Positions 11,369-61,364 of a stretch of 64,000 bases of DNA are shown here, in pieces (within the stretch, counting starts at the first letter, position 1; every line of letters begins with the position of its first letter). Origin of the DNA: Bacteroidales bacterium (GTDB lineage Bacteria > Bacteroidota > Bacteroidia > Bacteroidales > WCHB1-69). The stretch spans positions 9,575 to 73,574 of the forward strand of contig JAFPVR010000107.1 of assembly GCA_017395245.1 (NCBI GenBank), written 5' to 3'. The position numbers and the translations under genes were made by a program. Under the pieces are notes generated by a model. That model saw nothing but the letters and a program-made list of their open reading frames with translations. It was not told the origin of the DNA and searched no databases.

Positions 11369-11420
11369 GGGCTGAAAGCCCGACGTATGTCAGCCCAGGG
11401 TGAACGCAGTGAGCCCTGGG
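11369..11420 (+). repeat. GNA-triloop double-hairpin element, copy 1 (subfamily A)
   Basis: GGGCT-GAA-AGCCC, 11-nt spacer, CCCAGGG-tgaaCGCAGtgag-CCCTGGG. It ends 22 nt upstream of the rlmN ATG. Confidence 0.8.
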
Positions 11421-11442
11421 TCGAATAAACGATGAATGAACG

Positions 11443-12483
11443 ATGAACGATATCCGAAATATAAAATATGATGCGTTGGTTTCGTTTTTGACGGCCAACG
11501 GTGAAAAACCGTTTCGGGCGAAACAGATTTGGACGGGATTGTGGAAGCGGGGTGCGGGTTCGTTTGACGAAATGACCGATCTCTCCGTGGCATTGCGGAC
11601 GAAATTACAGGAGAATTTCACGTTCCATAGGGCGGAAATTGTCGAAGAGGCGCATAGTGCCGACAAATCAGCCAAGTTTTTGTTGCAGTTCCACGATGGC
11701 AAGATGGTCGAGGGCGTGCTCATTCCGAGCAAGGAGCGTGTCACCGCGTGCCTCTCCACGCAAGTCGGATGCCCGTTGCATTGCGCGTTTTGCGCTACCG
11801 GCACCATGGGTTTTATCCGCAACCTCCACTACAGCGAGGTCATTGACGAGTACGTACTGCTCAACAATCGGGCGCAAGAGATTTACAATCAGCATATTAC
11901 CAACATCGTTTTCATGGGGATGGGTGAGCCGTTGCTCAATTTCGACAATATGATGACCGCCATCGACATCCTCACGGGCAAGGACTATTTTGCATTGTCG
12001 CCGACACGGATTACGCTATCTACTGCGGGCATTATCAAGGGCATCAAAGCCTTGGCAGACAGAAATTTCCGTTGCGGATTGGCCATTTCGTTGCACAGTG
12101 CTGATCCCAATGTCCGCGGGCAAATTATGCCGGTCACGGAAGGCAACCCGCTCCACGACCTGCAGGCGGCATTAGCTTATTATCACCAGAAAACCGGCGA
12201 GCGCATCACCATCGAGTATTTGTTGTTATCGAAGGTCAATGATTCGGAAAAAGCGGCCGAACAATTAGCTCGTTTCTGCCGTCCGTTTCCTGTGAAAATC
12301 AACATTATCGAATACAATTCCACGCCTGATTCACTGTTCCACAAATCGGATCCGGTACGCAAACAGGGCTTCATCGCCGTTTTGGAGCGTTGCAATATGG
12401 TGGTGAACATCCGCCAGAGCAAGGGCCAGGACATTGCCGCGGCGTGCGGGCAGTTGGTGCGGAAAACGGTTAACGGATTGTAG
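11443..12483 (+). CDS. rlmN: 23S rRNA/tRNA (adenine-C2)-methyltransferase, radical SAM
   Basis: ...GEKPFRAKQIW..., Cys cluster CPLHCAFCATG, 346-aa length. Confidence 0.9.
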   Translation: MNDIRNIKYDALVSFLTANGEKPFRAKQIWTGLWKRGAGSFDEMTDLSVALRTKLQENFTFHRAEIVEEAHSADKSAKFLLQFHDGKMVEGVLIPSKERVTACLSTQVGCPLHCAFCATGTMGFIRNLHYSEVIDEYVLLNNRAQEIYNQHITNIVFMGMGEPLLNFDNMMTAIDILTGKDYFALSPTRITLSTAGIIKGIKALADRNFRCGLAISLHSADPNVRGQIMPVTEGNPLHDLQAALAYYHQKTGERITIEYLLLSKVNDSEKAAEQLARFCRPFPVKINIIEYNSTPDSLFHKSDPVRKQGFIAVLERCNMVVNIRQSKGQDIAAACGQLVRKTVNGL

Positions 12484-12780
12484 GGACGTATCGCAGTTGT
12501 GACGACGACGTGTGTTTTACCCCCTCTCAAAACCCCAGTATTATGGGCAAGTTCTGAACAGAATCCCCATCAATAGGGCGATTGTGGAATTCGTGATGAA
12601 CTCATCTTTAAATATCACATAAATTGCTGATACACAGAAGTGTTCGTGCGTGATAGGTTCGTGATACTCATCAAATAACCCTACAGCATTTCCCATGTTG
12701 TATCTTTGCCGTCGAAATCCTTCCGGAAGGTTTCAGCGTTCTTTGACATATTGGAAGAGTTATATTACTGTAAAAAAGTG

Positions 12781-12788
12781 TATTTTTG
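12781..12788 (+). promoter_or_regulatory. -7 box TATTTTTG
   Basis: It lies 37 nt upstream of the ATG at 12825. A second box, TATCTTTG, is at 12701-12708. Confidence 0.45.
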
Positions 12789-12824
12789 CGGCGTTGATTT
12801 TTATTATTCATCAGATTTGAAAAC

Positions 12825-13235
12825 ATGAAAAACGATCAAAACACCGATCCTATTGCAGAAGCCAGACGTTATGTGGCCAATGCGCAAGAGACAATCAAGA
12901 AGGCCAAGTATGACTCCGAACTGAAAAGCTACACCGACAGCAAATACATCAAGGCGGCTGGCGACTACCTTTGGAAAGGCTGTCTCATCGCCCTTGATGC
13001 AGTGTTTCACGTGCGCACAGGCAAAGGACGCCCATCTATTGACAAGTACCGTGATGCTGTCGCGAAACGAGACAGGAAGTTACTGAACTCCGTGAACATA
13101 GGCTATGAAACCATGCATCTTGTCATGGGTTATGACGGCAACAGAAGCAAAAAAATCTGTGACACCGGTTTCGAGTATGCCAACGACATCATTGACCACT
13201 GCGCTACGCTGATGCCAAAGACGGTGTGTGCGTGA
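12825..13235 (+). CDS. Small helical hypothetical protein (from memory, resembles the Bacteroidales DUF5618 family)
   Basis: A 136-aa ORF in an AT-rich islet with its own promoter-like box. There is no TM segment or signal peptide. The family assignment is recalled, not searched. Confidence 0.5.
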   Translation: MKNDQNTDPIAEARRYVANAQETIKKAKYDSELKSYTDSKYIKAAGDYLWKGCLIALDAVFHVRTGKGRPSIDKYRDAVAKRDRKLLNSVNIGYETMHLVMGYDGNRSKKICDTGFEYANDIIDHCATLMPKTVCA

Positions 13236-13238
13236 TTA

Positions 13239-14630
13239 TCACTGTTCCCGATGCCGCAAGTCCACTACAATTTGCGGATACTTCTCCCGCAAATGCGCGG
13301 CCGTGCGCTCTGCGAAATAAACCGAGCGATGCTGGCCGCCGGTGCAGCCGAAATTGACCGTCAGATGGGTGAACTTGCGTTCCAAGTAGTTGTCCACCGA
13401 CATGTCCACCAACGCACATACGTGATTCACAAAGGTTTCCACCTCTTGATATTGTTCTAAATATTCTTTCACGCAGTCGTCCTTGCCGGTGAAAGTGGCG
13501 TATTTTTTCTCGCGACCGGGATTGGGCAGGGCGCGGCAGTCGAAAACAAAGCCGCCGCCGTTGCCGGAGTTGTCTTCCGGAATCCCTTTCTTGTACGAGA
13601 AACTCTGTACGGTAACCGTCAACACGTCAGGGTTTTCCGATATTGGGGCCACGTAGCTGTCCACTAACGTTTGCAACACTTTCCGCAGTTCGGGCAATCC
13701 TTCCGGCAACGCATTCTGTTCCAGCAAGTAACGCATATTGCGGATGGCGTAGGGAACGCTCTGCAGGAAGTGCGTCTTCCGCTCGAAATAGCCCCGGTAT
13801 CCGTACGCACCCATCGCCTGCATAATGCGGATAAGTGCAAAGGCGTTGAAAGCGGCCTTGAACTGTTGCCGGTCAACTGGGATGTACTTTCCCAGATTGT
13901 CCAAGTAGCATTCCAACAGTTCGTTACGGGTTTCGGGCGAGAGGTCGGCCTTGGCATCATAAAGCAGCGAGGCAATGTCGTATTGCAATGCGCCTTTCCT
14001 GCCACCCTGATAGTCGATGAACCAAACGTCGTCTTCGAAAACCATAATGTTCCGCGACTGGAAATCCCGGTAGAGGAAAAAGTCATCCTCGACACTAAGC
14101 AGGTAGTCCATAAACCGCTGATAGTCATCCTCTAACAGCTGCTCGTTAAACGGGATGTAGGCCATCTTGAGGTAGTAGTACTTGAAGTAGTTGAGGTCCC
14201 ACTGCATGGATTGGCGGTCGAAGGCGGCGCGGGGGTAGGCCACCGACATGTCCAACCCTTTTTTCGCCGTCATCTGGAACTTGGGCAAGGCTGCCACCAC
14301 TTTCCGATAGTCGTCCATAATCTCTTGAAAATCACCATTATCCTTCCGAACTTCGCACAGTTTGTCGTAAAGAGTCTGTTTTCCGAGATCGTTGAGCAGA
14401 TAATGTCTCTCGTCCTCGTGAATGGCCAGCAGGGAGGGAACCTTCAGCCCTTGCGCGGCAAAGAAGCGGGTATACTCGAAAAAGGCGCGGTTCTCCGCCA
14501 CGTCGTCATTGTACACGCCGATGAGGGTGCTGCCGTCTTCGAAGGTGAAGCGGTAGTAGCGCCGGTGCGAGCCGGATTGCGCGAGGGGGACGCAGGAGGT
14601 GGGGGAGGCACCGACGTGGGCGGTGGCCAT
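13239..14630 (-). CDS. Fusion protein: AmgK/APH-like sugar-kinase domain plus RapZ C-terminal domain
   Basis: Kinase motifs LYRDFQSRNIMV and WFIDYQGG. The C-terminus FSYKKGIP...DCRALPNPG...FGCTGGQHRSVYFAE matches the RapZ C-domain. The start is trimmed from 14795 to the ATG at 14630 because 14671-14738 is a repeat element. Confidence 0.75.
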   Translation of the reverse strand: MATAHVGASPTSCVPLAQSGSHRRYYRFTFEDGSTLIGVYNDDVAENRAFFEYTRFFAAQGLKVPSLLAIHEDERHYLLNDLGKQTLYDKLCEVRKDNGDFQEIMDDYRKVVAALPKFQMTAKKGLDMSVAYPRAAFDRQSMQWDLNYFKYYYLKMAYIPFNEQLLEDDYQRFMDYLLSVEDDFFLYRDFQSRNIMVFEDDVWFIDYQGGRKGALQYDIASLLYDAKADLSPETRNELLECYLDNLGKYIPVDRQQFKAAFNAFALIRIMQAMGAYGYRGYFERKTHFLQSVPYAIRNMRYLLEQNALPEGLPELRKVLQTLVDSYVAPISENPDVLTVTVQSFSYKKGIPEDNSGNGGGFVFDCRALPNPGREKKYATFTGKDDCVKEYLEQYQEVETFVNHVCALVDMSVDNYLERKFTHLTVNFGCTGGQHRSVYFAERTAAHLREKYPQIVVDLRHREQ

Positions 14631-14670
14631 TGCGGTTATCGTGTCTGCGGCTGTCGCCTTGTCTGTAATG

Positions 14671-14738
14671 CCCCACACTGCGCTTTGCTTGTGTGGGGTT
14701 AATTGCACTTCGTGCGTGTTGCCTCTTCGAGGCTGCTC
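14671..14738 (-). repeat. GNA-triloop double-hairpin element, copy 5 (subfamily B, with an extra mini-hairpin)
   Basis: Sense strand: GCCTC-GAA-GAGGC, then GCAC-GAA-GTGC, then CCCCACAC-aaGCAAAGCgca-GTGTGGGG. Confidence 0.8.
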
Positions 14739-14784
14739 AGGGAGGTTATTCATATATGTGGTTATTCGATCGTTGCCTATTGCC

Positions 14785-16041
14785 TTAATTGTCATTCAAC
14801 TTGATGAAACAAAACAACATAATCGTAAACGCCCAGAGGGAGGAGCCGCCGTAGCTGATGAAGGGCAAGGGGATGCCGATGATGGGCAGCAGGCCGGTGG
14901 TCATGCCGATGTTGATGAAAAAGTGGAAGGCGATAATGCCCGCGATGCCATAACCGTAGTAGCGGACAAACGGATTACGCTGTTTTTCAGACAGTTTGAG
15001 AATGCGGAAGATGAGGGCGCCGAAGAGGCCGAAGACGACCAAGGTGCCGAAGAAACCCCATTCTTCGCCAATGGCACAGAAGATGAAGTCGGTGCTTTGC
15101 TCGGGCACGAAATTGAGTTTCGTTTGCGTGCCTTTGAGGTAGCCCTTGCCGAAAAGTCCGCCCGAGCCGATGGCAATTTTCGACTGGTTGAGGTTGAAGT
15201 CGGCGCCCAGCGGGTCGGAGGTTTTGCCCAAAATGGTGTCAATGCGCTGCTTCTGGTGCGGTTCGAAACCGTGCTCGTAAAGGAAGTTGACGGAGAATAC
15301 GAACACGATACAGGCCACGTAGACGATGACGTTGCGTCGCATTTTTTTCTTCTTCGTGCGGTTGGCAATCATAAACCCGATGAAAACGGCCGTAATCAGG
15401 GCAAGGGAGTAGGTTTCGTTGAATTTCAGGGTGATGAAGGCCAGGATTGCCGCAATGATGCCGAGTACCAAAAACTCCGCGCTGAATCCTTCGCGGTAGA
15501 AGAGGATGATGAAGGAGAAGAAGACAAGTGCCGAACCTGCATCGTGCTGCAACAATGCCACGATGACCGGGATGAAGATGAGGGCGAACTGCACAATCCA
15601 CACGTTGCGGCGCTGGCTTTCGGTCTTGCCCTCCTGCATGAACTTGGCCAATGCCAACGCCGTGGCCACTTTCATGAATTCCGTAGGCTGTATGCTGAAA
15701 CTGCCGATTTTTATCCACGACTTTGCGCCGTTGATTTCCGCCCCGATGAACAGCACCAAAATCATCAAAAAGAGACAGAACAGGTAGAAAAAATAGGCGT
15801 AATGTTGTATGATACCGCTGTCTATCAACAAGATGACGGTGGCTAAGAAGAAAGAGGTCCCGATCCAGAGCATCTGTTTTCCGTAAGGTTGCCCAAAGTC
15901 GAAAATCGGGGTGGAACCGTCGGGAATGTAGCAGGTGGAGTAGATGGTGATCCAGCCGATGACGACTAAGGCGAGATAGTAAACGATTAGCCTGACATCG
16001 AAGCCTTTGGAGAGTTTGTTATAGGGTTCTAACTTCGGCAT
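14785..16041 (-). CDS. rodA: Rod-shape-determining protein RodA (SEDS family)
   Basis: A 418-aa polytopic FtsW/RodA/SpoVE-like protein directly downstream of PBP2. Confidence 0.85.
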   Translation of the reverse strand: MPKLEPYNKLSKGFDVRLIVYYLALVVIGWITIYSTCYIPDGSTPIFDFGQPYGKQMLWIGTSFFLATVILLIDSGIIQHYAYFFYLFCLFLMILVLFIGAEINGAKSWIKIGSFSIQPTEFMKVATALALAKFMQEGKTESQRRNVWIVQFALIFIPVIVALLQHDAGSALVFFSFIILFYREGFSAEFLVLGIIAAILAFITLKFNETYSLALITAVFIGFMIANRTKKKKMRRNVIVYVACIVFVFSVNFLYEHGFEPHQKQRIDTILGKTSDPLGADFNLNQSKIAIGSGGLFGKGYLKGTQTKLNFVPEQSTDFIFCAIGEEWGFFGTLVVFGLFGALIFRILKLSEKQRNPFVRYYGYGIAGIIAFHFFINIGMTTGLLPIIGIPLPFISYGGSSLWAFTIMLFCFIKLNDN

Positions 16042-24539: not shown

Positions 24540-24790
24540 TAGGAGCTTCGGCATTCTTGCCGAAAATTTTAGGAGATTCGGCATTCCTGCCGAAAGTCGT
24601 TAATGTCGTTCTGTGGCATTCCTGCCGCACCTCCTATTTTAATGTGACAGGAATGCTGCGGTCCCTATTTAATGCGGCAGGAATGTCGCGGCTCATGTTT
24701 TAATGCGGCAAGAATGCCGCGGCTCATGTTTTAATGCGGCAAGAATGCCGCGGTTCATGTTTTAATGCGGCAGGAATGTCGCGGCTCCTA
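24540..24790. repeat. REP array (8 hairpin cores GGCATTCYTGCC / GGCARGAATGYC) flanking the RAYT 3' side
   Basis: Two TAGGAG-oriented units, one doublet, then five units with a 31-nt period (TTTTAATGCGGCAAGAATGCCGCGGCTCATG). Confidence 0.9.
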
Positions 24791-25454
24791 AAGTGTATTC
24801 GTCAGTATTTAAGTACTGTGGATTGTTTTGAATATAGGTTATGTAGTGCAGGAAGTTGTTGAAATTTCTCACCATGCGGTCGAATATACCCGATTGCCAA
24901 ATAGTGCCCTTTTGACCCAGAACCTTGTTGATAGAATGTGCGGAAAAGCCCTTCACTCTGGAAAATACGGTCGTGACATTATGTCCGTTCATGGGTGTGA
25001 GTAATACGTGAACATGGTTGGGCATAATGACATAGCAATGGAGGATATAGCGTTTCCCGTCATAGAATAGAAGAGCATCCTCTACAATTTTCCTTATATC
25101 GGGTCTTTTAAGAATGCAACTACCGTATCCCGCATCTATCCATCTGTCACACTTTACGAGAATGTTATGATCGTATTCTTCTTGTACCTCTTGGCTCCAG
25201 GGGTAAGGGTGTGCTTTCATCCATTCCTGTTTGTATGCTTTCAGTTCCTCAATTTTCGACTGTGGGATTGAATCTGCCAAACGGAATGTGACAAATTGCG
25301 TTTTACCGTCCTGATGCCAATGCGGCAGATTTGTCCCCCAAATGTTGACATATTTGTTTTTTTCGAGGAATTGATAGGGTCTTTGGCATTCTTGCCGAAG
25401 CCCGTTAGCGTCATTTTGCGACAAGAATGCCGCGGTTTTAAGTTTTGTCTTCAT
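24762..25454 (-). mobile_element. REP-associated tyrosine transposase (RAYT; IS200/IS605-type Y1 HUH transposase)
   Basis: ...NLPHWHQDGKTQFVTFRLADS..., HUH motif MPNHVHVLL, C-terminal Tyr motif LHYITYIQNNP. It is flanked by REP arrays. Both ends of the ORF overlap REPs, so the exact start is uncertain. Confidence 0.8.
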
Positions 25455-25542
25455 TTTTAGTTTTTGTATTAAACGTTACCTAACGTTGAAGCAGATAGGT
25501 TTATTGTATTCCTCAAAAATATACTTGTTGCTAAATGTGGCG

Positions 25543-25669
25543 TAGGAGTTTCGGCATTCTTGCCGAAAATTTTAGGAGTTTCGGCATTCTTGCCGAAAAT
25601 TTTAAGAGTTTCGGCATTCCTGCCGAAGGTTGTTAATAACGTTCTGCGGCAGGAATGCCGCAGCTCCTA
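25543..25669. repeat. REP array (3 direct 30-nt units plus 1 inverted, forming a REPIN-like doublet) on the RAYT 5' side
   Basis: TAGGAGTTTCGGCATTCTTGCCGAAAATTT x2, then TAAGAGTTTCGGCATTCCTGCCGAAGG...CTGCGGCAGGAATGCCGCAGCTCCTA. Confidence 0.9.
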
Positions 25670-25673
25670 TGAC

Positions 25674-25703
25674 AAAAAAAGGGACACCCCCAAAGGATGT
25701 CCC
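25674..25703 (-). terminator. Rho-independent terminator of the MFS gene
   Basis: On the minus strand: GGGACA-tcctttggggg-TGTCCC followed by TTTTTTT. Confidence 0.7.
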
Positions 25704-25717
25704 AGATTATGATTTTC

Positions 25718-25745
25718 GTAGAGACGCGGCGCGCCGCGTCTCTAC
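25718..25745. repeat. GTAGAGACGC palindrome family, copy 2
   Basis: GTAGAGACGCGGCGCGCCGCGTCTCTAC, 4 nt after the MFS stop. Confidence 0.85.
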
Positions 25746-25749
25746 ATAA

Positions 25750-27453
25750 TTATTTGATGTTCGGTTCTTCGAGACCGAGGTGCTGTTTCTTATCGACAGC
25801 CTTCAGGATGACACCGATGACGAGGGCGGCCACACCGAGGCAGGCGAGCATCACCAAAGCCCATGTGTAGTCGAGTTCGTGGGCGGCGGTGCCTGATTCG
25901 TTGGTGGCGTTGAGCACCTTGCCGATGAGCAGCGGGAAGAGCCACAAACCGATGTTCTGGATCCAGAAGATGAGGGCGTAAGCAGAACCGATAATCTTCT
26001 CGTCGACCAATTTCGGGACGCTCGGCCACAAAGCGGCGGGCACCAAGGAGAAGGAGGCACCGAGCACCAAAATGGTGAGGTAAGCTACGATGACACCACC
26101 GACGGCGTTGCCCTTGAACTGCGGCAGAATGAAAGCGAAGGTCAAGTGGCAGATAATCAGCAACAAAGAGCCAATCATCAACATGGAAGCGGCTTTACCC
26201 TTGTGGTCCACATAGTTACCAAGAATAGGCGTGATAGCCACGGCGAGCAGCGGGAAGACGGCGAAGATGGTCTCGGCGGTGCCGCGCATGAAGCCCATAT
26301 AGCAGTAAACGATCAAAGCCACAACAGCGATGGCCATCAGACCGATTTTGGCAGTTTTGTTCTTGGAGAAGTTGCTGGTGAAGGAGCAAGCAGCCACGAC
26401 CAACATCACCAGATATTGGATAATGGTCACGCTGTCGCCTGCCCAGAAACCGGTGCCGGGATTGAGCGTCAGGTTACATTGCAGCATGTTCACGGCATAT
26501 TTCTGGAACGGGAAGATAGCGCTGTAGTAAAGCACGCAGAGCAAAGCCACCAACCAGAAACCACCGGAAGAGAGAATTTTGCCGATGTCGGACACTTTGA
26601 ACGGATCATCTTTCTCTTCGGCCTCGCCGGTCTGGGCATCCAACTTCTTGTCCATGAAGAAATAGACGATGAACATCATCAAAGCAATACAAAGCAACAC
26701 CACGCCGAAAGCGACGGAACGGGAAACGTCCACAACGCCGCCTAACTTGGCGAAGAAGGGTGAGAAGATCATGCAGGTGGCGACACCCAGACGGGCGAGA
26801 GCCATCTCGGAACCCATGGCCAAAGCCGTCTCACGACCCTTGAACCATTTCACAATGCCGCGGGAGACTGTAATACCAGCCATCTCCACACCGCAACCGA
26901 AAATCATGAAGCCGATGGCGGCCACCTTGGCGGAAGCAGGCATCGTGGAGGTAATACGCAAGAATTCCATCGTGTTTGGATCGAATTTGACGGCATTGAT
27001 CTCTTTGACCACACCGTTGACCATCACTTCCCAACGCTCACCATAGAACGGAGCCACACCCAGTTCGTCAAAACCAGGGACATATAGGAAATGGGTGGTA
27101 AACCACTGTGCCAGACTTGAATCGATAAAAGCATCCGTCACAGCGTAGTACTTGATAAGACCACCTACCAGCATGACTGCACCGGACAGGATAGCGGTGA
27201 AACGAACGCCCATCTTATCCAGGATAATACCGGCAAAGATGAGGAAGAAGACGAACACGTTCAGGAACGTCTCAGCACCCTGCATGGTACCGAAGGCAAG
27301 GCTGTCCCATCCACGCTCGGTTTGCATCAAGTCCTTGATGGGGGACAGGATGTCCATGAAGATGTAGGAACAGAACATGGCCAAGGCCAGCAGCAACAAC
27401 GCGGTCCATCTCATGGCCGGGTTGTCTCTCAATGTTTGTAATTTTTCTTCCAT
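25750..27453 (-). CDS. MFS transporter (567 aa, with an extra loop/insert)
   Basis: A polytopic protein with an MFS-like N-terminal half (...FLIFAGIILDKMGVRFT...). Confidence 0.7.
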   Translation of the reverse strand: MEEKLQTLRDNPAMRWTALLLLALAMFCSYIFMDILSPIKDLMQTERGWDSLAFGTMQGAETFLNVFVFFLIFAGIILDKMGVRFTAILSGAVMLVGGLIKYYAVTDAFIDSSLAQWFTTHFLYVPGFDELGVAPFYGERWEVMVNGVVKEINAVKFDPNTMEFLRITSTMPASAKVAAIGFMIFGCGVEMAGITVSRGIVKWFKGRETALAMGSEMALARLGVATCMIFSPFFAKLGGVVDVSRSVAFGVVLLCIALMMFIVYFFMDKKLDAQTGEAEEKDDPFKVSDIGKILSSGGFWLVALLCVLYYSAIFPFQKYAVNMLQCNLTLNPGTGFWAGDSVTIIQYLVMLVVAACSFTSNFSKNKTAKIGLMAIAVVALIVYCYMGFMRGTAETIFAVFPLLAVAITPILGNYVDHKGKAASMLMIGSLLLIICHLTFAFILPQFKGNAVGGVIVAYLTILVLGASFSLVPAALWPSVPKLVDEKIIGSAYALIFWIQNIGLWLFPLLIGKVLNATNESGTAAHELDYTWALVMLACLGVAALVIGVILKAVDKKQHLGLEEPNIK

Positions 27454-44400: not shown

Positions 44401-44682
44401 TATCAGCTTTACCTGCCCAACGCTATCACGCCCGCTCGTGGCGACGGCCTCAACGACTACTTCTACATTCCGGAGCTCGCGAAAGGTTCAATCAACCTGT
44501 TCGAAATCAGCGTTTTCAACCGCTGGGGTGAGATGGTGTTCTACTCCACCGACAAGAATTTCCAGTGGAACGGCGAATACAAGGGGAAGATTTACCACCA
44601 GACGGTCTATACCTACGTTATCGAATATACGGACTATGCAGGTCGGCCGTTCCGCGTGACGGGAACGATAACGGTGTTGTAA
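32455..44682 (+). CDS. Giant (4075 aa) T9SS type-B sorting-domain surface protein, adhesin-like
   Basis: Signal peptide MRRAVAILMLWMLCCGWISAQ. The body carries Ig/SprB-like repeats, three P-domain-like modules and about 35-40 Cys-containing ~52-aa repeats. The C-terminus LYLPNAITPARGDGLNDYFYI...FNRWGEMVFYS...WNG matches the gliding-motility-associated C-terminal domain. Confidence 0.9.
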   Translation: MRRAVAILMLWMLCCGWISAQQQHFPYNVDVQILPGHCYDDSHLIFTLTDDNGNIIQIDPQTHNAVNLGQYPLYNVQYHYQSVSGGLGVHYDYDNDIMLSAGTYCVGVVAEIPAAGGSYTQVDTTFCNVQVTTSYDHLEATALSNVAYDNDGDVERYGFRASFHCADVGRIQLRIVQGSFPYTVTILDEQQDTVRHTVFYYRANSGNNPYAASYRDYYTFDSLPIGTYSIYVSDSCGYTVPLAFNIPDYEPARYLALVKSDLSGCLDETVVPFVVERRYPSGIGAIWCNYNYSYMDSILMYRFINPGGDTTEWKNINTPGYAATWVSVYDTFPSYCNIFYDTIKMQLHDLCHDTLMTYSFRFLPQFGFSDSIVEVYQQDTIIHDTCATHLPNGVSTQTYKIWGSTWTGAGKTIYGSAYSAYPVPFRYYRCPLSYNIWSLPDSTLLGHDQSDEFTGLGTWETYFADTSLHVYVSVTDAQGCTLADKDTVLVYQTEPVDELLFWYECHNDKDDDGKDHCCADRYLWIQEHGVDADTFRRNMTLRLIESPLYNQFNFTAIRQDGVWTVTPDDPNNHSTYLEFSYEDGWRATVRDSVCLPPGRYTFEVSTDCGVDTITYSWAGYYYDTLDFVSAPQYEIQQLCGDMVFTQISTGLVNYMYFIDPEVSNDIPEETIPNYACSSYSPDGGSDYRDSHGRNVLVFSIPGTYSITTYAYNWYCSNCADWCSEYHYHYDTITVAFSYVDFDMAAALLCDASATTGIVTAQAINGNSPYTYTLYSQWGATGDVIATNTTGFFDNVPMTVGQHFSVQVTDSCQISFSVNLTATLLTHGSLVWEQNANTGLHCAGDTVQLTAMNFPPPATYQWSGPNGFSSTSQTVDVVLPDYSENGWYTVEILNSDICGMSVFDSILVSMAPDPQVTITGDTTVCPGGSLILQASSSIGESSYFWSTGDTTSTITATQDQATEYTVTATSPVGCTGTASKTVEIQAPNPISTHVYLCSDSTTTLTARAADAYAWSTGATTSFITVSAAGIYRVTATPSDGCSVVDTFVVTTVKVNGISNIDIPDICAGDTAAITVGHAASCNLTIITHETILALNDTVFLPDGADCLPYGCSYQSSLHFAGYEDTAKVNSVDDIRYVRLNIEHSYAGDIYINITCPNGQKADIIRWGDYQQFPSDAQTYCASDISNSSKGWQSDVEGSYNASQGTDFGVPYNHSDSGFPCDATRPNNAPGTGWNYCWSNNTSEGYTYAEGTGSLIYRECNAVFNYDATPTYITWPIPMAVYPKSFDSSNVAAGTQFYHPDESFDSLVGCPLNGDWYIEVLDGINVDNGYIFGWELALTPDIQMIEYVDVVSTTVDGPWVTATSDSSFLFTPPANLPNDTTISYTFHCHSPFGCGYDTVVSVTFHPRQDIVIDTTACNSLVWNGVTYTTDTTFTDSLTNIHGCDSIITVNIHVITTPSVDIIGSHYFCPGDTVMLTAVAGGQAQYLWSNGETDSTITVTEAGVYTVTAYFPGGCSAESDEFHLFEVENPILGGFLNDMVAGDTQTVVIGTMAGDNLQYQLPQSTLTYSTVTFLPDGEPCGDPPSCSYKATMSFSGFPETAVIHSADEIRYIRLKVEHSWIKDLYINLTCPSGKSADILKKFNGNSSSPCLDSISPSHRGWQDNYFASTNTSIYFGYAFWKSDNGNRCDPNRPDNQPGIGWNYCWSNNTTEGYQYAPGAGSLIYEPENVHSHTVDYLTKYVVDSSDAAAGTNFYHPDVPFDSLVGCPVNGLWTVEVIDGIQGDNGYIFECELSVAEQLCSTHYAHVSEIGFEGLWAENGSADSSFVITPPADLANDTVVGYTFTLTDENGCVFDTTIYIHIYAHKHTDLYDTVPTDELPYVWNGPTITHAGCSDTLLFTTHGADSVVTMHLSVIYPFDTTICTNVFPLSWHGHTFNGVDTLTISHPLACGCDSMEVLTVAESPVYQDTSYVSVCESNLPYMWRGQSLNSTGVYADTLFTVAGCDSILVLNLRVEDVYEIPLQESICQGDTFLFFGQMLTQSGVYTDTLQTSSGCDSVIILNLTVNPTYNIPFTVTICQGDAFFFFGQLLTEEGVYADTMQTVAGCDSVITLTLVVNPTYNIPVSGAICQGDTFLFFDQQLTEEGEYTKTLQTVKGCDSVITLTLTVNPTYSIPVSEAICAGDTFDFHGESLTEAGVYLDTLQTISGCDSIIVLNLSVNPVYYITLSDTICAGDTFYFFSLALTSAGVYTDTLQSISGCDSIITLNLVANPVYNIPLSAEICAGDTFLFFGQSLMTTGLYTDTLQTVNGCDSVISLHLTVNEATSETIVVNIVENDLPYEINQTSYDSAGTYIQHLTNAADCDSLLTIHLFVANNTITHQQAMICQNMLPAVWQGHVWQGAGVIIDTLEAANGADSIVVLTLTVGLPTESELYDTILQNNLPYVLNDSSYFATGVYVQQRINVAGCDSTITFHLTVLLNQRTELDSTVCDSLLPVVWNGITFTDAGVDSVLLEASNGVDSTVVMTVNVKPSSDSTLIVSVIENSLPYVLNDFEYGDPGTYTQSLDNAIGCDSTLTLVLTVLYNVRTEVDSVVCDSLLPITWNGVEFTGAGADSVLLTASTQVDSLVVMTLTVNYPTTGLVTDTVVQNNLPYLLNGTEYDTTGIYLQHLANVSGCDSTLTLDLTVLYNVKTYLDSTVCDSLLPVQWNGITFTEAGMDTVIYQAANGADSMVVMTLNVNASSYNTIIVNEIENNLPYTHNGIDYDSSGIYIQHLENALGCDSTLIIELTVLYNVRAEVDSVVCDSLLPITWNGVEFSGAGTDSVTILAASGVDSTVVMTVTIAYPTEGTFADTVVENSLPYQLNGFSYDSAGVYTQHLTNVDGCDSTLTFGLTVLYNVASEADSAVCPNALPIVWNGKTFTAAGVQSAVLTAANGVDSTVTMTVTTLPSPTAHISGPSVLCADSYTTLTADSAMSYLWSNGMTTQSINVHATGSYSVTVTNELGCTASETYVVGNMVTVDPLTAINLPSHLCAGNSYTMTAGYHSTDNFVIGAIEETHSVAETVFLPDGIYCSPYGCSYQSPLTFTDFAAGSTVTNVNDIRYVRLNMEHSYAGDIYINITCPNGQKADIMKYAGTGTSSCTGSIPAGSIGWQSGNNASQSTFFGMAYDYSTTSCNSSVSANAPGVGWNYCWSNNTDQGYSYAPGTGSLIYRSANSHYHPYAYGTNSVSIFDSSNVAAGTQFYHPDQSFSSLIGCPLNGSWYIEVVDGYSIDNGYLFGWELALASTFATSNNTEVVAVTVEGPWATMTDTTTFVISPPDTLQHDTLAAYTVHFYDENGCGYDTVVFLNVYAQSHIAFDTTVCNSFVWAGTTYTQSQIITWNGVNAHGCDSTVAINLSVYPNPAVSITGQPVACVDDTANLVAACADTTALLVWSTGDTAQTITVTTAGTYTVTATNVGGCTSESTVTVAFSSPSQSTTDTTVCDSFLWNGTLYTQTGTYKDTLTNAAGCDSIATLNLTVKYSYLTHDTLQLLQSQLPYHFVPSDTTFAYGSPAEFQFSYTLPAQNGCDSVILEKVYIYMNYSQSFDTTVCASAVPLTWHGHTFTATATVTDSLQTVHGSDSVLTYTVTVDVISANIGNVTHIACYGDNTGAATATVTGGISPLTYQWTNGAGASVSSTTQISNRPAGDYTFTVTDAAGCSATASVTLNTLHGQMLSGTISGPQTFCFGDTVGTISGTAATGDGCVYQWQISADGTSWTPLQGTNNTQNYTFQTPVTNSFHLRRAWISTDCGTLYSDTLDISVWPVSSDTIYDDICVGNPYNEHGFNISETETVGLGTLTSWIHYTSVHGCDSTVTLILDIHEPRETDISAEVCEGTGYYENGFAIPASETVGEDSLSRVLNLQTVDGCDSVVRLAITVIDTALRIVSPTADFCEDMSAELFVVTNMTDYEWSTGEQTPNITVTVPGVYKVTASEGGCSVTARYVIEPCVYQLYLPNAITPARGDGLNDYFYIPELAKGSINLFEISVFNRWGEMVFYSTDKNFQWNGEYKGKIYHQTVYTYVIEYTDYAGRPFRVTGTITVL
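35707..36466 (+). other. P-domain-like module 1 (proprotein-convertase P/Homo-B-like, with a long insert)
   Basis: TVFLPDG...VRLNIEHSYAGDIYINITCPNGQKADI...GWNYCWSNNT...CPLNGDWYIEVLDGINVDNGYIFGWELAL. Confidence 0.6.
37123..37830 (+). other. P-domain-like module 2
   Basis: VTFLPDG...IRLKVEHSWIKDLYINLTCPSGKSADI...GWNYCWSNNT...CPVNGLWTVEVIDGIQGDNGYIFECELSV. Confidence 0.6.
38050..41273 (+). repeat. 21 consecutive ~50-55-aa Cys repeats (in-frame ~156-165-nt coding repeats)
   Basis: Each unit follows C-x2-3-(LP/GD)...W/F..G...G.Y.DTL....GCDS.(4-5)L.L.V. Units 4-9 (38494-39405) are near-identical. Units 10-21 (39405-41273) alternate between two subtypes. Confidence 0.85.
41590..42288 (+). other. 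P-domain-like module 3
   Basis: TVFLPDG...VRLNMEHSYAGDIYINITCPNGQKADI...GWNYCWSNNT...CPLNGSWYIEVVDGYSIDNGYLFGWELAL. It is protein-identical to module 1 over stretches, but with many synonymous DNA differences. Confidence 0.6.
44394..44679 (+). other. T9SS type-B C-terminal sorting domain (within the giant CDS)
   Basis: CVYQLYLPNAITPARGDGLNDYFYIPEL...ISVFNRWGEMVFYSTDKNFQWNGEYKGK...YTYVIEY. Confidence 0.8.
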
Positions 44683-44718: not shown

Positions 44719-44746
44719 GTAGAAACGCAAAATTTTGCGTCTCTAC
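44719..44746. repeat. GTAGAGACGC palindrome family, copy 3 (left arm GTAGAAACGC)
   Basis: GTAGAAACGCAAAATTTTGCGTCTCTAC sits between the convergent giant gene and ispD and overlaps the ispD stop by 4 nt. A degenerate partial copy (...CACGTCTCTAC) lies at about 44678-44705. Confidence 0.8.
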
Positions 44747-45453: not shown

Positions 45454-45480
45454 CGTATTATTATCGTCATTCGTTCCAAT

Positions 45481-45536
45481 CCCAGGGTTGCGGCTTCGCC
45501 TTACCCTGGGCTACCGAGCTTTTGCCCCTGCGGGGC
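45481..45536 (-). repeat. GNA-triloop double-hairpin element, copy 2 (subfamily A)
   Basis: Sense strand: GCCCC-GCA-GGGGC, 12-nt spacer, CCCAGGGT-aagGCGAAGCcgca-ACCCTGGG. It ends 27 nt upstream of the ispD ATG. Confidence 0.8.
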
Positions 45537-45572
45537 TGCTCAAGGAATAATACTATATATAAAAACTGCCCA

Positions 45573-45620
45573 GTGTTCAAGTTTCAAGTTTCAAGTCCAA
45601 AGTCTTAAGTCTTAAGTCTA
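45573..45620. repeat. Heptamer array (GTGTTCA, AGTTTCA x2, AGTCCAA, AGTCTTA x2, AGTCTAT)
   Basis: Seven phased units that abut the yitT stop codon. Confidence 0.85.
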
Positions 45621-49963: not shown

Positions 49964-49980
49964 ATTTTTATTTTTTGATT

Positions 49981-50037
49981 CCCCACACTGCGCTTCGCTT
50001 GTATGGAGTTATTGAAATTTTGTCTCTTCGAGACTGC
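49981..50037 (-). repeat. GNA-triloop double-hairpin element, copy 3 (subfamily B)
   Basis: Sense strand: GTCTC-GAA-GAGAC, 13-nt spacer, CTCCATAC-aaGCGAAGCgca-GTGTGGGG. The two G.T pairs work only on the sense strand. It ends 17 nt upstream of the adaptor ATG. Confidence 0.8.
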
Positions 50038-50048
50038 TTTAAGATTCT

Positions 50049-50069
50049 ATAACCAATAACCAATAACCA
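50049..50069. repeat. Heptamer array ATAACCA x3
   Basis: It abuts the tolC-like stop codon. Confidence 0.85.
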
Positions 50070-51445: not shown

Positions 51446-51500
51446 CAAAGTCAAAGGTCAAGGTCAAAGGTCAAAGTCAAAGGTCAAAGTCAAAGGTCAA
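51446..51500. repeat. Tandem array AAAGTC/AAAGGTC (6/7-nt units, 13-nt super-unit)
   Basis: CAAAGTCAAAGGTCAAGGTCAAAGGTCAAAGTCAAAGGTCAAAGTCAAAGGTC. Confidence 0.85.
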
Positions 51501-51543
51501 AAAAACAGGCAACAAGTCCATTCTAATTCCCTGTTGCCTGTTT
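51499..51543 (-). terminator. Rho-independent terminator after cdaA
   Basis: On the minus strand: ACAGGCAAC-aggg...ctt-GTTGCCTGT followed by TTTTTTT. Confidence 0.7.
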
Positions 51544-51575
51544 CCTATTGCCTAATGCCTACTCCCTAATGCCTT
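51534..51575. repeat. Heptamer array TTGCCTG/TTTCCTA/TTGCCTA/ATGCCTA/CTCCCTA/ATGCCTT
   Basis: Six phased units. The last one contains the cdaA stop codon. The array overlaps one terminator arm. Confidence 0.75.
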
Positions 51576-53920: not shown

Positions 53921-53948
53921 GTAGAGACGCACGGCCGTGCGTCTCTAC
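53921..53948. repeat. GTAGAGACGC palindrome family, copy 4
   Basis: GTAGAGACGCACGGCCGTGCGTCTCTAC, a perfect 28-nt palindrome. Confidence 0.85.
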
Positions 53949-57528: not shown

Positions 57529-57541
57529 CACTATTTTTTGG

Positions 57542-57593: not shown

Positions 57594-57677
57594 TTAGACT
57601 TAAGACTTAAGACGTTAGACTTGAGACGTTAGACTTTGGACCTGAAACCTGAAACCTGAATCTTGAAACTTGAATCT
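57594..57677. repeat. Heptamer array of 12 phased units that drift in sequence
   Basis: TTAGACT TAAGACT TAAGACG TTAGACT TGAGACG TTAGACT TTGGACC TGAAACC TGAAACC TGAATCT TGAAACT TGAATCT. Confidence 0.9.
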
Positions 57678-57702
57678 TCGGAATATATAAACCCCAAGCA
57701 AT

Positions 57703-59016: not shown

Positions 59017-59020
59017 TAAC

Positions 59021-59055
59021 TTTAAGTCTCAAGTCTCAAGTCTTAAGTCTCAATC
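59021..59055. repeat. Heptamer array TTTAAGT/CTCAAGT x2/CTTAAGT/CTCAATC
   Basis: Five phased units starting 5 nt after the stop codon. Confidence 0.85.
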
Positions 59056-59059
59056 AGAA

Positions 59060-59101
59060 ACAACAAACGGACGACCCCTTTCGGAATCGTCCGTTTGTTG
59101 T
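59060..59101. terminator. Long hairpin between convergent genes (bidirectional terminator candidate)
   Basis: ACAACAAACGGACGA-cccctttcggaa-TCGTCCGTTTGTTGT, a 15-bp stem. Confidence 0.55.
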
Positions 59102-59121
59102 ATATGCTATAAATGCTTATT

Positions 59122-60318: not shown

Positions 60319-60357
60319 ATTCTTTGTTTTTTGTGACTTTATATGTTTATTGTAGGG

Positions 60358-60521
60358 GTGATCTGTGATTAGTGATTGGTGATTAGTGATTGGTGATTAG
60401 TGATTGGTGATTAGTGATTGGTGATTAGTGATTGGTGATTAGTGATTGGTGATTAGTGATTGGTGATTAATATCATAATTGTTCATTATAAATTGCCCAT
60501 TGTTAATTGTACATTGTACAT
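60358..60521. repeat. Heptamer array of about 23 units: GTGATTA/GTGATTG alternation, then a degenerate phased tail
   Basis: GTGATCT, then (GTGATTA GTGATTG) x7, then GTGATTA ATATCAT AATTGTT CATTATA AATTGCC CATTGTT AATTGTA CATTGTA. On the minus (sense) strand it reads as the CACCAAT/CACTAAT family, the same as 8429-8638. Confidence 0.9.
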
Positions 60522-60526
60522 AGAAA

Positions 60527-61285
60527 TCATTCTTCCCCGCGGAGGATGTCGGCGATGTGGATAATGCCCACATCAACGTCGTGCTGCTGTTTGTAGGCGT
60601 CTAAAAGTTGGAGGCAGTGGATGTCGGTGGAGGTGATAAACTCGGCTCCCTGGTTGTAGGCGCGAAGCACGATTTCGCCGGTCATCTTCTCGGCAGCCTC
60701 GGGGTTCAGCATCGGGAATCGGCCGTTGGCGCCGCAACAACAGTTTTTTACTTCGGTGTCCTCAATCAGGTCGAGACCGACAGTGTTCCGAAGCAAGGTC
60801 TCCGGGGCGTTGTTGGCTGGATAAAGATGTTTGGCCGAGCAGGATTTGAAGTAGAATACGCGATGACGAAATTCGTTGCCCAACCGATCCACTTTCAACA
60901 CATTGACAATGTAATCACACAGCTCATACACATTTTTGATGAAGGTGTTGAGCTCGTTAGGAAGCGTGGCGTTCTTGAGGATAAGATCGAAATGGCGGTG
61001 CATGAAGCCTGCGCAGGCGGCATCGGGAACAACCACTGGGAACTTTTTGCCGTGCAATTCGCAATATTCCGTGTAGGAGCGGATGACCTGATAACCCAAG
61101 TCCTTGGCGTACTGCATTTCGCCCTCCATGAAGAAGCGGCGGCCGCAGCAGGTGCTTTCCATGTCGTAATGGCAGAACTGTTCCAGACGGTTGAGCACCG
61201 TAATCACGCTCGTCACTGTCTCCGCCTGGAAGAGGTCCATCTGGCAGGGAACGTATAAGAATACCGTCTGTTGCGAATCCGACAT
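60527..61285 (-). CDS. (Fe-S)-binding protein with cysteine-rich CCG domains, LutA/GlcF-like
   Basis: MSDSQQTVFLYVPCQMDLF...STCCG...; second half ...FKSCSAKHLY...NCCCGANG. Confidence 0.7.
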   Translation of the reverse strand: MSDSQQTVFLYVPCQMDLFQAETVTSVITVLNRLEQFCHYDMESTCCGRRFFMEGEMQYAKDLGYQVIRSYTEYCELHGKKFPVVVPDAACAGFMHRHFDLILKNATLPNELNTFIKNVYELCDYIVNVLKVDRLGNEFRHRVFYFKSCSAKHLYPANNAPETLLRNTVGLDLIEDTEVKNCCCGANGRFPMLNPEAAEKMTGEIVLRAYNQGAEFITSTDIHCLQLLDAYKQQHDVDVGIIHIADILRGEE

Positions 61286-61306
61286 TTTCGTTGTTTTTGT
61301 TTATGA

Positions 61307-61364
61307 CCCCCACACTGCGCTACGCTTGTGTTGGGTTATTAAAATCTTGCCTCTTCGAGGCTGC
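61307..61364 (-). repeat. GNA-triloop double-hairpin element, copy 4 (subfamily B)
   Basis: Sense strand: GCCTC-GAA-GAGGC, 13-nt spacer, CCCAACAC-aaGCGTAGCgca-GTGTGGGGG. It ends 21 nt upstream of the lutA-like ATG. Confidence 0.8.

Follow-up and report, generated by a model that had tools for sequence, protein, structure and literature searches.

A hairpin repeat of operon-internal gaps in uncultured rumen Bacteroidales, related to the Rfam class Acido-Lenti-1

Five copies of the repeat in one contig

We considered a stretch of 64,000 nucleotides from a metagenome-assembled genome (MAG) of a Bacteroidales bacterium (GTDB lineage WCHB1-69; GenBank assembly GCA_017395245.1, contig JAFPVR010000107.1, positions 9,575 to 73,574), below called the window. 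Five gaps between co-directional genes of the window carry a composite hairpin element, copies c1 to c5 (Table 1). Read on the strand of the genes, the element starts with an unpaired leader, (A)UUCCUURAGCAG, followed by hairpin H1 (5 bp), in most copies hairpin H2 (4 bp), and hairpin H3 (8 bp), whose loop holds a GC-GNA-GC tip; an A-rich stretch separates this large hairpin from the start codon at all five sites. It is well supported that the five sites are copies of a modular repeat, a divergent relative of Acido-Lenti-1 (Rfam RF01687), found specifically in one clade of uncultured Bacteroidales from rumen and gut.

An initial annotation of the window had described five double hairpins situated 17–40 nt upstream of start codons. 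Reading of the sites bore out the position, strand and hairpins of each, and the measured distances (Table 1) span just this range; the names given to the flanking genes agree with domain matches and gene calls. The extents were right with respect to the hairpins and wrong at the start, as the true 5′ end lies 12–13 nt earlier, at a conserved unpaired leader (A)TTCCTTRAGCAG. As described, c5 has a GCAC-GAA-GTGC hairpin; it is not an extra one, however, being the standard middle hairpin H2. Three hairpins were seen in 105 of 118 aligned copies of the family, two hairpins being the minority form. Also as described, a T-tract follows none of the five copies, and a heptamer array or a GTAG palindrome precedes four of them.

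A covariance model (CM), R1, was built from copies in other genomes (c1 remaining outside the training set) and run on the window with filters off. R1 found exactly five sites and thus no further copy in the window; the next match had E=0.85. The two conserved halves of the element matched 3–4 times in the window versus zero expected from 100 shuffles. A chance origin of the five sites is excluded. Copies orthologous to c5 (in L073) and to c3 (in L035 and L023) were found in related genomes; here and below L-numbers denote sampled loci.

Table 1. Positions of the element's copies and of other features (window coordinates; coordinates within a sampled locus where an L-number is given)
Feature	Position	Strand	Downstream ATG	Hairpin end to ATG (nt)	R1 score	Description
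c1	11358..11422	+	11443 (rlmN)	22	21 bits (E=8.7e-4)	MiaB-like gene > rlmN gap; two-hairpin c1-type subfamily; leader ATTTTCCAAAAA; H1 GGGCT-GAA-AGCCC; linker GACGTATGTCAG; H3 CCCAGGGT..ACGCAGT..GCCCTGGG
c2	45479..45548	-	45453	27	59.8 bits (E=1e-13)	YitT-family gene > ispD gap; two-hairpin subfamily with GGTAG foot directly 5′ of the large hairpin; H1 GCCCC-GCA-GGGGC; linker AAAAGCTCGGTAG; H3 CCCAGGGT-AA-GGC-GAA-GCC-GCA-ACCCTGGG
c3	49979..50046	-	49963	17	68.6 bits (E=6e-16)	OEP (TolC-like) gene > HlyD-family gene gap; canonical type without H2; H1 GTCTC-GAA-GAGAC; H3 CTCCATAC..GCGAAGC..GTGTGGGG with two G.U pairs
c4	61306..61373	-	61285	22	71.2 bits (E=1e-16)	ribonucleotide reductase gene > CCG-domain (LutA-like) gene gap; canonical type without H2; one A.G mismatch in the large stem; 12 nt downstream of the double-foot palindrome 61384-61411
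c5	14669..14745	-	14630	40	96.3 bits (E=5e-23)	rodA > APH/RapZ-C kinase gap; canonical three-hairpin form
c5 leader	14745-14733	-
c5 H1	14733-14721	-				GCCTC-GAA-GAGGC
c5 H2	14715-14705	-				GCAC-GAA-GTGC
c5 H3	14698-14671	-				CCCCACAC-AA-GC-AAA-GC-GCA-GTGTGGGG
Kinase call after c5	14630-14795 (L001 11797-13311)	-				deposited gene call; starts upstream of c5 and reads through it
Leader–linker pairing	45510-45545					c2 subfamily
H3 partial repeats	L076:4759-4852; L058:5453-5476; L092:2800-2825; L090 after 7527; L105 after 5461					head-to-tail, after full copies
Double-foot palindromes	8391-8418, 25718-25745, 44719-44746, 53921-53948, 61384-61411					GTAG at one end, CTAC at the other
Heptamer arrays (examples)	8430-8634, 11255-11314, 45576-45619, 50049-50069, 51446-51574, 57596-57674, 59024-59053, 60365-60521					tandem heptamers
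CCCCTTC module inside H1	L018:6307-6425					composite module
GNA mini-hairpin array	L040:1990-2130					(ACAGCCGAAGGCTCACCA)n
Y1-HUH (RAYT-like) gene	24762-25454	-				motifs NHVH...WQ...YIQNNP
CGGCA hairpin arrays	24549-24800; 25543-25660					~30-nt tandem arrays of CGGCA-RGAA-TGCCG
REPtron	24540-25760					RAYT-like gene with its hairpin arrays
Long open reading frame	32455-44682					4075 residues
Repeats in long reading frame	38575-39058					tandem repeats of ~153 nt (51 residues)

The family, its fold and its genomic setting

A genome collection containing one genome per species was scanned with a degenerate two-part pattern, and the copies found were supplemented by nhmmer and CM searches of the sequence fetched around the matching loci. 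The pattern favours the canonical subfamily, and all of the genomes are MAGs. The scan gave at least 111 loci, and the extended set holds at least ~165 copies from ~25 rumen Bacteroidales MAGs, 143 of them near full length. Loci found by the pattern came essentially all from uncultured ruminant Bacteroidales, the remainder being one chance match and one contig that is probably misbinned: a 2.8-kb contig assigned to Fibrobacter (L068, JAFVGH010000028.1) bears a canonical copy, and since this copy is almost identical to that of the Bacteroidetes MAG RUG13189 (L107), the assignment is likely to be in error. A search for carriage by phages gave no match in 2.9 million viral contigs. With five copies in the 64 kb of the window, and with ~45 copies that had not themselves triggered the scan in 0.9 Mb of the sampled loci, we estimate ~50–80 copies per Mb, which would bring the number per genome well above a hundred.

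The dominant form has three hairpins: TTCCTTRAGCAG - [GYCYC-GNA-GRGRC] - AARAC - [GCRC-GAA-GYGC] - AAWTAA - [CCCCAYAC-AA-GC-GNA-GC-GCA-GTGTGGGG]. Copies c1 and c2 represent separate subfamilies. The c1-type, with leader ATTCCAAAAA, H1 GGGCT-GNA-AGCCC and H3 CCCAGGG..., was found in several MAGs (L104, L105, L100, L014, L090 and L053); c2-type copies were found in L019, L029, L034, L048, L052, L055, L062 and L101. In L069, canonical and c1-type modules are combined into a mosaic, and some copies contain nested insertions of other palindromes. Some full copies are followed by partial, H3-only repeats in head-to-tail order (period ~33–35 nt or longer), which suggests slippage or local amplification. 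In the c2 subfamily we also saw that UURAGC of the leader is able to pair with GCUYGG of the linker around H1; this helix is present in the minimum free energy (MFE) fold of c2, and several copies combine a G-to-A change in the leader with a C-to-U change in the linker, although exceptions exist.

Structure was assessed in the 118-copy alignment, as H1 of c1 was misplaced when MAFFT aligned only the five window copies. Standard pairs filled 98.5% of the pair cells, versus 31–48% when the 3′ partners were slid by 1–3 columns. At positions left free by the search pattern, pair 14–24 is CG in 87 copies and UA in 29, pair 16–22 CG in 63 and UA in 53, pair 33–39 GC in 60 and AU in 43, and pair 55–70 CG in 97 and UA in 16; the copies being related, these are not counts of independent events. 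Given the register control and the many distinct variable pairs, the helices are secure, and the stem covariation first noticed among the five window copies extends, in dozens of copies, to the family.

As to the strand, non-Watson–Crick cells of the Bacteroidales copies, when read in the sense of the genes, include 37 G.U and 15 A.C. Every hairpin tip is a C-G-closed G-N-A triloop: the H1 loop is GGA in 59 copies, GAA in 50 and GTA in 8; the H2 loop is GAA in 93 of 105; the H3 tip, literally GCGAAGC or GCGCAGC, has GAA in 62 copies and GCA in 42. Sense-strand folds match the model structure with z from −2.5 to −3.9 (c1: −28.6 kcal/mol, z=−3.85; the MFE fold of c5 is the model structure itself), whereas antisense folds are worse for c1, c2 and c3. 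For c3, the copy from which a preference for the sense strand had been argued initially, −18.0 kcal/mol (z=−3.42) in sense compares with −11.7 (z=−0.47) in antisense. Thus, in view of the wobble counts, the loops and the folds, the pairing strand is the gene-sense strand, as had been proposed. G.T wobble is tolerated in DNA too, and wobble counts alone do not separate RNA from single-stranded DNA (ssDNA) of the sense strand.

A helix closing the element between the leader and the 3′ flank was considered and rejected, as the 3′ flank has no conserved complement. A coding role was considered as well, since one frame is open through the element; the covarying stems, and the place where the APH domain begins, speak against translation. 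The stop-free frame lets 22 downstream open reading frames (ORFs) of the set run through the element, and the deposited kinase call after c5 (Table 1) is such a case; with translation of the kinase from 14630 the APH domain starts at residue 18. Starts of the read-through ORFs are probably mis-annotated, and gene callers should be expected to extend downstream ORFs in this way.

For the analysis of genomic setting, genes were called with a crude codon-usage caller, which reproduces the deposited calls in the window; 132 copies had both neighbours called. The co-orientation with genes described for the window proved to be general: in co-directional gaps 119 copies lay in sense and 4 in antisense (p=2e-30); there were 6 copies in divergent gaps and 3 in convergent gaps. 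Within the window the orientation flips together with the genes over 3.3 kb (c1 on the plus strand, c5 on the minus strand); thus, it tracks transcription rather than replication. Closeness to the downstream start is likewise a property of the family. The distance from element to ATG has a median of 37 nt (interquartile range (IQR) 23–70 nt, mode 10–40 nt, 5th percentile 15 nt), whereas the distance from the upstream stop codon is flat over 0–100 nt, with 18 copies at 10 nt or less. In the mosaics with heptamer arrays and palindromes that had been likened to BIMEs, and that we did observe around the element, an array preceded the element in 30 gaps and followed it in 6 (p=1e-6). Arrays of element-free gaps did not lean towards the stop codon (27 of 49), and so it is the element that keeps nearest to the start.

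Frequencies of the Bacteroidetes −7 promoter box, TAnnTTTG, were determined on the sense strand of the gaps. The box was present in 75% of divergent gap strands (positive control) and in 6% of convergent gap strands (negative control). Among co-directional gaps it occurred in 95 of 230 without the element (41%) and in 7 of 108 with the element (6%; p=4e-12); with the bases of the element excluded, the density of the motif was still five-fold lower in element-bearing gaps. Thus, the element sits in promoter-less, operon-internal gaps. Gene strings may have several successive gaps occupied (five in L049; three each in L072, L091 and L113). Among the 6 copies in divergent gaps, 5 adjoin the start they point at and 3 have a perfect −7 box (TATTTTTG) 27–85 nt upstream, which places these 3 in a 5′ untranslated region. 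The 3′ flank of the element is A-rich, with 17% T, and the sequence between element and ATG has 41% A. An A/T-rich box is situated at −27 to −11; it fits no known Bacteroidetes promoter consensus.

Several other accounts of this position were tried. A promoter in or just upstream of the element was rejected, since TAnnTTTG occurred within 50 nt in only 3 of 137 copies. The TGA or TAA of the leader serves as the stop codon of the upstream gene in only 1 of 115 copies. The genes that follow the element belong to different functional classes (in the window rlmN, ispD, an HlyD-family gene, a CCG-domain gene and a kinase), and successive gaps of unrelated operons are occupied; a gene-specific cis-regulatory leader, such as a riboswitch or attenuator, was rejected for this functional diversity. 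A gene-less region of 4.4 kb in L016 turned out to be a tandem gene duplication overlooked by the gene caller, not a non-coding array.

Conservation was evaluated in 56 cross-species pairs of copies with homologous genes on both sides. Median identity was 85% for the element, 46–51% for the rest of the same gap, 63–68% for third codon positions and 89–96% for first and second codon positions. Orthologous copies were more alike than non-orthologous copies of the same genome pairs (identity 0.89 versus 0.855; 32 of 45 pairs, p=2e-4), yet paralogs within a genome are 88% identical. Taken together, these comparisons indicate that copies descend at fixed positions while the family as a whole is under strong constraint or is homogenised. 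Terminal inverted repeats were not found, as the ends of the element, TTCCTTRAGCAG and GTGTGGGG, are not inverted repeats of each other; comparison of filled and empty orthologous gaps gave no sign of target-site duplications.

Acido-Lenti-1 and the neighbouring repeats

The initial annotation knew of no description of this element. In a whole-window scan with Rfam models, using gathering scores as well as E-values, RF01687 (Acido-Lenti-1) matched c1 on the minus strand with 41.1 bits, above its gathering score of 37, and no other family accounts for the element. Under lax filters RF01687 was the best family for c2 too, with a full-length match of 24.1 bits (E=6e-4) that is below the gathering score and on the strand opposite to the genes. 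There was no match to c3 and c4 at E≤10 and none to c5; in another genome, the copy of L104 reached 38.5 bits, above the gathering score. Hence one of the five window copies is formally a member of a described Rfam family, and to this extent the claim of novelty fails and the match that would have made the element a known one has been found; c3–c5 and the dominant three-hairpin form are unrecognised by Rfam, and for them the claim stands.

Acido-Lenti-1 was defined by Weinberg et al. 2010 (PMC2864571) from 89 sequences, mainly of Lentisphaera araneosa and Acidobacteria, and classed as a likely RNA that is not cis-regulatory; the only comment recorded there is that it is sometimes near group II introns. 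Copies annotated through Rfam have been mentioned in Tannerella, with little known about them (bioRxiv 10.64898/2026.02.09.704811). The architecture of the class (8-bp hairpin, ~12-nt linker, 5-bp triloop hairpin and a trailing conserved CU) agrees with the hairpin order of all five window copies. Their linker between the two hairpins has 11–22 nt, the canonical form adding a hairpin within it, and the AG of the leader's AGCAG stands directly before H1 in c2–c5, opposite the conserved CU of Acido-Lenti-1. The three-hairpin form is tied to Acido-Lenti-1 through reciprocal model matches on c1 and the L104 copy and through shared gaps, c1-type and canonical copies occupying the same orthologous gaps in different species.

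The strand annotated in Rfam is the opposite of the one derived above. In the 70 distinct rows of the Rfam seed the annotated strand has 8 G.U versus 38 A.C, and in 56 of the 70 the small loop is G-N-A on the other strand; the Bacteroidales copies, read on the strand annotated in Rfam, give 15 G.U versus 37 A.C. Because of these counts in Rfam's own seed and in our copies, the orientation of RF01687 is probably inverted. Seed coordinates further reveal tandem arrays with periods of ~74, ~110 and ~195 nt, and flanks from the supplement of Weinberg et al. hold Lentisphaera units in inverted pairs beside arrays of GCGAAGC mini-hairpins. With such tandem arrays and inverted pairs, Acido-Lenti-1 is itself a dispersed repeat resembling REP (repetitive extragenic palindromic) elements and their BIME mosaics.

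Likeness to REP elements was also examined in the Bacteroidales copies. The large hairpin fits the published descriptor of a 'long REP' (PMC6006769), and almost all copies are intergenic, in line with the definition of REPs and REPINs as high-copy, extragenic, imperfect palindromes. The GT[AG]G foot of REPs, a tetranucleotide 0–2 nt 5′ of the hairpin base, is seen in c2-type copies, as GGTAG-CCCAGGGT; most Acido-Lenti-1 seed sequences have TAG on the GNA strand, c1 has CAG, and canonical copies have TTAA, ATAA or GTAA in this place. With respect to inverted doublets, Bacteroidales copies are singletons or head-to-tail partial repeats, with one inverted pair only (L090).

A transposase of the Y1-HUH type, RAYT-like in its motifs, is encoded in the window (Pfam Y1_Tnp, 26 bits versus a cut-off of 23); the motifs agree with those of RAYT subclass 2.4 (Quentin et al. 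2018, PMC6006769). The initial annotation had listed the role of an HUH-transposase substrate among the possible ones, and we found no direct support for it. The gene is flanked on both sides by tandem arrays of a different hairpin, CGGCA-RGAA-TGCCG; arrays of the same hairpin are shared by its three closest relatives (80–91% identity; L118–L120, rumen metagenomes), and in a metagenome scan all 39 loci encoding RAYT relatives were without the GNA element. Since the window RAYT and its closest relatives carry the CGGCA hairpin and not the GNA element, the latter is not the REPtron repeat of the window RAYT. Copies of the CGGCA hairpin also occur within the 5′ part of the RAYT-like gene. The GTAG palindromes of the window were tried as the repeat of this RAYT and rejected, close relatives having no such palindrome; the 'atypical REPs' of class 3 and subclass 2.6 of Quentin et al. 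(PMC6006769) were rejected as a match to the element on account of their sequences. By analogy with REPs, an ssDNA stage in the spread of the family is plausible.

The gaps contain other repeats as well. The GTAG palindrome is a second dispersed repeat, a 28-nt perfect double-foot palindrome GTAGAGACGY-N8-RCGTCTCTAC with variable centre, of which 38 copies were counted in the sequence examined; these palindromes are REP-like and usually lie directly after stop codons and kilobases away from GNA elements. Tandem heptamer arrays with many different units (GGTTAGT, ACTTAAG, GGTTATT, GTGATTA and others) occupy a large share of intergenic gaps; they were present in ~21% of element-free gaps of related MAGs, with unit sequence and length varying between orthologous gaps. 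We take them to resemble the STRR heptamer repeats of cyanobacteria. A composite module (CCCCTTC-loop-GAAGGGG, GCCC-GNA-GGGC, GGGGTAGTAATAT) is situated directly upstream of some GNA elements (L041, L023, L055, L113 and L115) and once inside H1 (L018). Bare tandem arrays of GNA mini-hairpins occur in a Bacteroidales MAG, as (ACAGCCGAAGGCTCACCA)n, and in Lentisphaera, as (CAGCGAAGCGGUCUUA)n in the flanks from L. araneosa; with such arrays in both phyla, Bacteroidales and Lentisphaera have the same kind of intergenic repeat landscape. Away from the element, the 4075-residue ORF of the window, which contains 51-residue tandem repeats, probably encodes a giant surface or secreted protein.

Readings of the element and comparison with known systems

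The reading that we favour, and hold with somewhat less than even confidence, is that the element is a REP-like repeat transcribed within polycistronic mRNAs, where it would act in cis as an intercistronic RNA hairpin module. Transcription in sense within such mRNAs is inferred from the promoter-less gaps and from the few tens of nucleotides that separate the element from the ATG. Stable, independently folding hairpins would then form a 'punctuation' module between cistrons. The module may stop exonucleases and delimit endonucleolytic processing within the A/U-rich stretches on either side of it, and would thereby confer segment-specific mRNA stability; a self-contained fold would also keep the A-rich, Shine–Dalgarno-less initiation region of the downstream gene unpaired. 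The family would probably have spread and been homogenised through an ssDNA stage, as presumed by analogy with REP elements. For comparison, REP and BIME elements stabilise upstream mRNA segments, and MITEs (miniature inverted-repeat transposable elements) such as the Neisseria Correia element are co-transcribed and processed (PMC3733652).

Several observations weigh against an intercistronic module maintained for its function in RNA. (i) C-G-closed GNA triloops are a hallmark of DNA mini-hairpins, their RNA versions being much less stable (PMC13037366); GNRA or UNCG loops would be the expected choice in an RNA selected for stability. (ii) Given the high identity of paralogs, conservation could reflect gene conversion or re-insertion rather than selection on each copy. 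(iii) Gaps turn over between species, so that no single copy is indispensable: 39 of 169 orthologous comparisons were without a canonical copy, and about 10 of these 39 gaps hold a c1-type copy, the rest having heptamer arrays, the GTAG palindrome or other arrays of GNA mini-hairpins, or being too short. (iv) The inverted pairs and tandem arrays of Lentisphaera have no obvious polarity with respect to transcripts. (v) Gene calls and start codons came from the crude caller, and the search pattern that supplied the copies is biased towards the canonical subfamily.

The main rival is a selfish repeat of REP/REPIN or MITE kind filtered by selection: a repeat with no host function, spreading as ssDNA by means of an HUH (RAYT-type) or other enzyme, the observed biases being those of the surviving insertions. 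We consider this possible, though clearly less probable than an intercistronic module. The family is high-copy, strictly intergenic and modular, with its subfamilies, mosaics, nested insertions and partial duplications of H3; presence or absence and the replacement of modules vary between species; and depletion from promoter-bearing and divergent gaps has been reported for REPs too (PMC3733652). In c2-type copies and Acido-Lenti-1 seeds, read on the GNA strand, a (G)TAG foot precedes the large hairpin as in the canonical REP layout (PMC6006769), the loops are of DNA mini-hairpin type (PMC13037366), Lentisphaera units form REPIN-like inverted pairs, and a RAYT-like gene is present in the same window. 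On the other hand, this RAYT and its close relatives are accompanied by the CGGCA hairpin, the canonical form of the element has lost the GTAG foot, and neither terminal inverted repeats nor target-site duplications were found. Passive filtering alone would hardly produce a sense bias of 97%, a place as the final module ahead of the start and an ortholog identity of 85–89%, compared with ~65% at synonymous-like sites. One could speculate that antisense insertions were removed as polar terminators, and that the orientation bias arose in this way; the terminator scan, negative on both strands of the element, does not support such a filter.

A role in translation initiation instead of mRNA stability is unlikely, although a number of observations agree with it. 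Here the element would serve internal cistrons that have no Shine–Dalgarno sequence, as a standby or landing platform for ribosomes or as a site for a protein (e.g. bS1 or an RRM protein). It is start-proximal, the last module before the ATG, and never nearer to it than ~9–15 nt, which leaves the region of ribosome contact free; the stretch up to the ATG is A-rich, and the promoter-less internal gaps are where de novo initiation is needed. Moreover, conservation is higher in the unpaired leader and linkers than in the stems, suggesting sequence-specific recognition. Against this stand the broad spacing to the ATG, with a tail beyond 100 nt, the many orthologous gaps without the element and the majority of internal cistrons in the same loci that do without it; searches found neither complementarity to rRNA nor a conserved partner sequence downstream.

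Action at the level of DNA is a still less likely explanation. GNA mini-hairpins might extrude on the non-template (sense) strand and form a protein-binding or topological site, as REP/BIME elements do for gyrase, IHF and Pol I, or ssDNA hairpins for primases and the N4 polymerase. A GNA triloop closed by C-G has exceptional stability in DNA and far less in RNA, and the natural examples known act on ssDNA (PMC13037366); a structure on the non-template strand is polar to transcription also, in agreement with the orientation data, and the asymmetry of wobbles (G.T tolerated, A.C not) applies to DNA equally. Nothing in such a role, however, accounts for adjacency to start codons or avoidance of promoter-bearing gaps; no associated DNA-binding or HUH gene was found adjoining the copies, and the covarying helices are obtained by folding the sense-strand RNA.

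Two further explanations are very improbable. A trans-acting small RNA (sRNA) gene on the strand annotated in Rfam would agree with the matches of that model to c1, c2 and the L104 copy and with the classification by Weinberg et al. (PMC2864571); it is contradicted by the wobble ratio and the G-N-A loops, which point the same way in the Rfam seed and in Bacteroidales, by antisense folds that are no better, and clearly worse for c1 and c3, and by the hundreds of near-identical promoter-less 'genes' per genome, antisense in operon gaps, that it would imply. An intrinsic terminator or attenuator of the upstream gene, for which one could cite stable G+C-rich hairpins after stop codons (within 10 nt in the 18 copies mentioned), can be dismissed with the initial annotation: the hairpins have no U-tract and lead into an A-rich 3′ flank, the terminator scan flagged neither strand of the element and found canonical hairpin-plus-T-tract terminators elsewhere in the window, efficient termination 10–40 nt before the next ATG with no promoter box between would silence the downstream gene, and only 3 of 132 copies are in convergent gaps.

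Returning to the intercistronic RNA module, a bolder version of it can be formulated, which we regard as a long shot. The element might be a dedicated 'operon punctuation', an RNA module recognised by a protein that marks the starts of internal cistrons and couples processing to a protected, translation-competent 5′ end; Acido-Lenti-1 would then be mis-stranded as a whole, and a cross-phylum class of REP-like repeats would have been built from DNA-type GNA mini-hairpins and domesticated for control at the RNA level.

Whichever role it has, the element fills a large share of the promoter-less operon gaps in a widespread group of uncultured rumen Bacteroidales. If it sets the stability of mRNA segments or the accessibility of starts, it would be a general layer of post-transcriptional organisation, in a phylum whose initiation does not rely on Shine–Dalgarno pairing and whose control of expression inside operons is poorly understood. 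The apparent wrong strand of RF01687 and the largest subfamily that it misses affect annotation of non-coding RNAs in Bacteroidota, e.g. in Tannerella (bioRxiv 10.64898/2026.02.09.704811). What is already catalogued is Acido-Lenti-1, with one window copy a formal member, one borderline and three belonging to a divergent variant that current models miss. What is new is this Bacteroidales variant with three hairpins, together with its near-absolute polarity in sense, its exclusion from promoter-bearing gaps, its adjacency to starts, its conservation beyond that of synonymous-like sites and the evidence for mis-stranding in Rfam.

Among known systems, Acido-Lenti-1 shares with the element the two-hairpin core, the conserved dinucleotide beyond the small hairpin and a multi-copy, often arrayed occurrence in genomes. 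The Bacteroidales form differs in the middle hairpin, in the GC-GNA-GC tip within the large loop and in the conserved 12-nt leader. It comes from rumen Bacteroidales rather than Acidobacteria or Lentisphaerae, and its copies are single, sense-oriented and start-proximal in operons, in contrast to the inverted pairs and tandem arrays of Lentisphaera.

The mini-hairpins of d(GCGAAGC) type described by Hirao and colleagues (PMC13037366) have the same C-G-closed GNA triloop as the tips of the element; their natural examples are single hairpins at ssDNA sites of replication or transcription initiation in phages and plasmids, whereas the element is a dispersed chromosomal repeat of operons. The atypical structures of RAYT subclass 2.6 (PMC6006769) are similar in coming from Bacteroidetes and in being REP-like hairpins that lack the canonical GTAG foot; their stem has 8 bp, and their triloop is GGA or AGA when read on one of the strands. 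The published example, GCTAG-CGCGAGCG-TCC-CGCTCGTG, is a single hairpin of different sequence, unlike the composite element.

Co-transcribed MITEs (Neisseria Correia/NEMIS, ERIC; PMC3733652) are, like the element, short intergenic repeats with stable RNA folds, and in their case the folds change the stability or processing of mRNA; they are bounded by terminal inverted repeats and target-site duplications and form a single long hairpin, features that the element does not possess. With the REP/BIME/REPIN repeats of Enterobacteria and Pseudomonads it has in common the high-copy extragenic hairpin, mosaics, subfamilies, long vertical retention, depletion from promoter regions and, as predicted for the element, co-transcription. 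Yet a REP is a single palindrome, and the element a composite of two or three hairpins with no GT[AG]G foot in its canonical form; REPs go together with a RAYT, and no copy of the element was seen beside the RAYT gene of its own genome; REPs are situated at gene 3′ ends or in convergent gaps, and the element is adjacent to starts with near-absolute sense polarity. It is this polarity and proximity to starts that set it apart from the REP/BIME elements and MITEs that act on mRNA.

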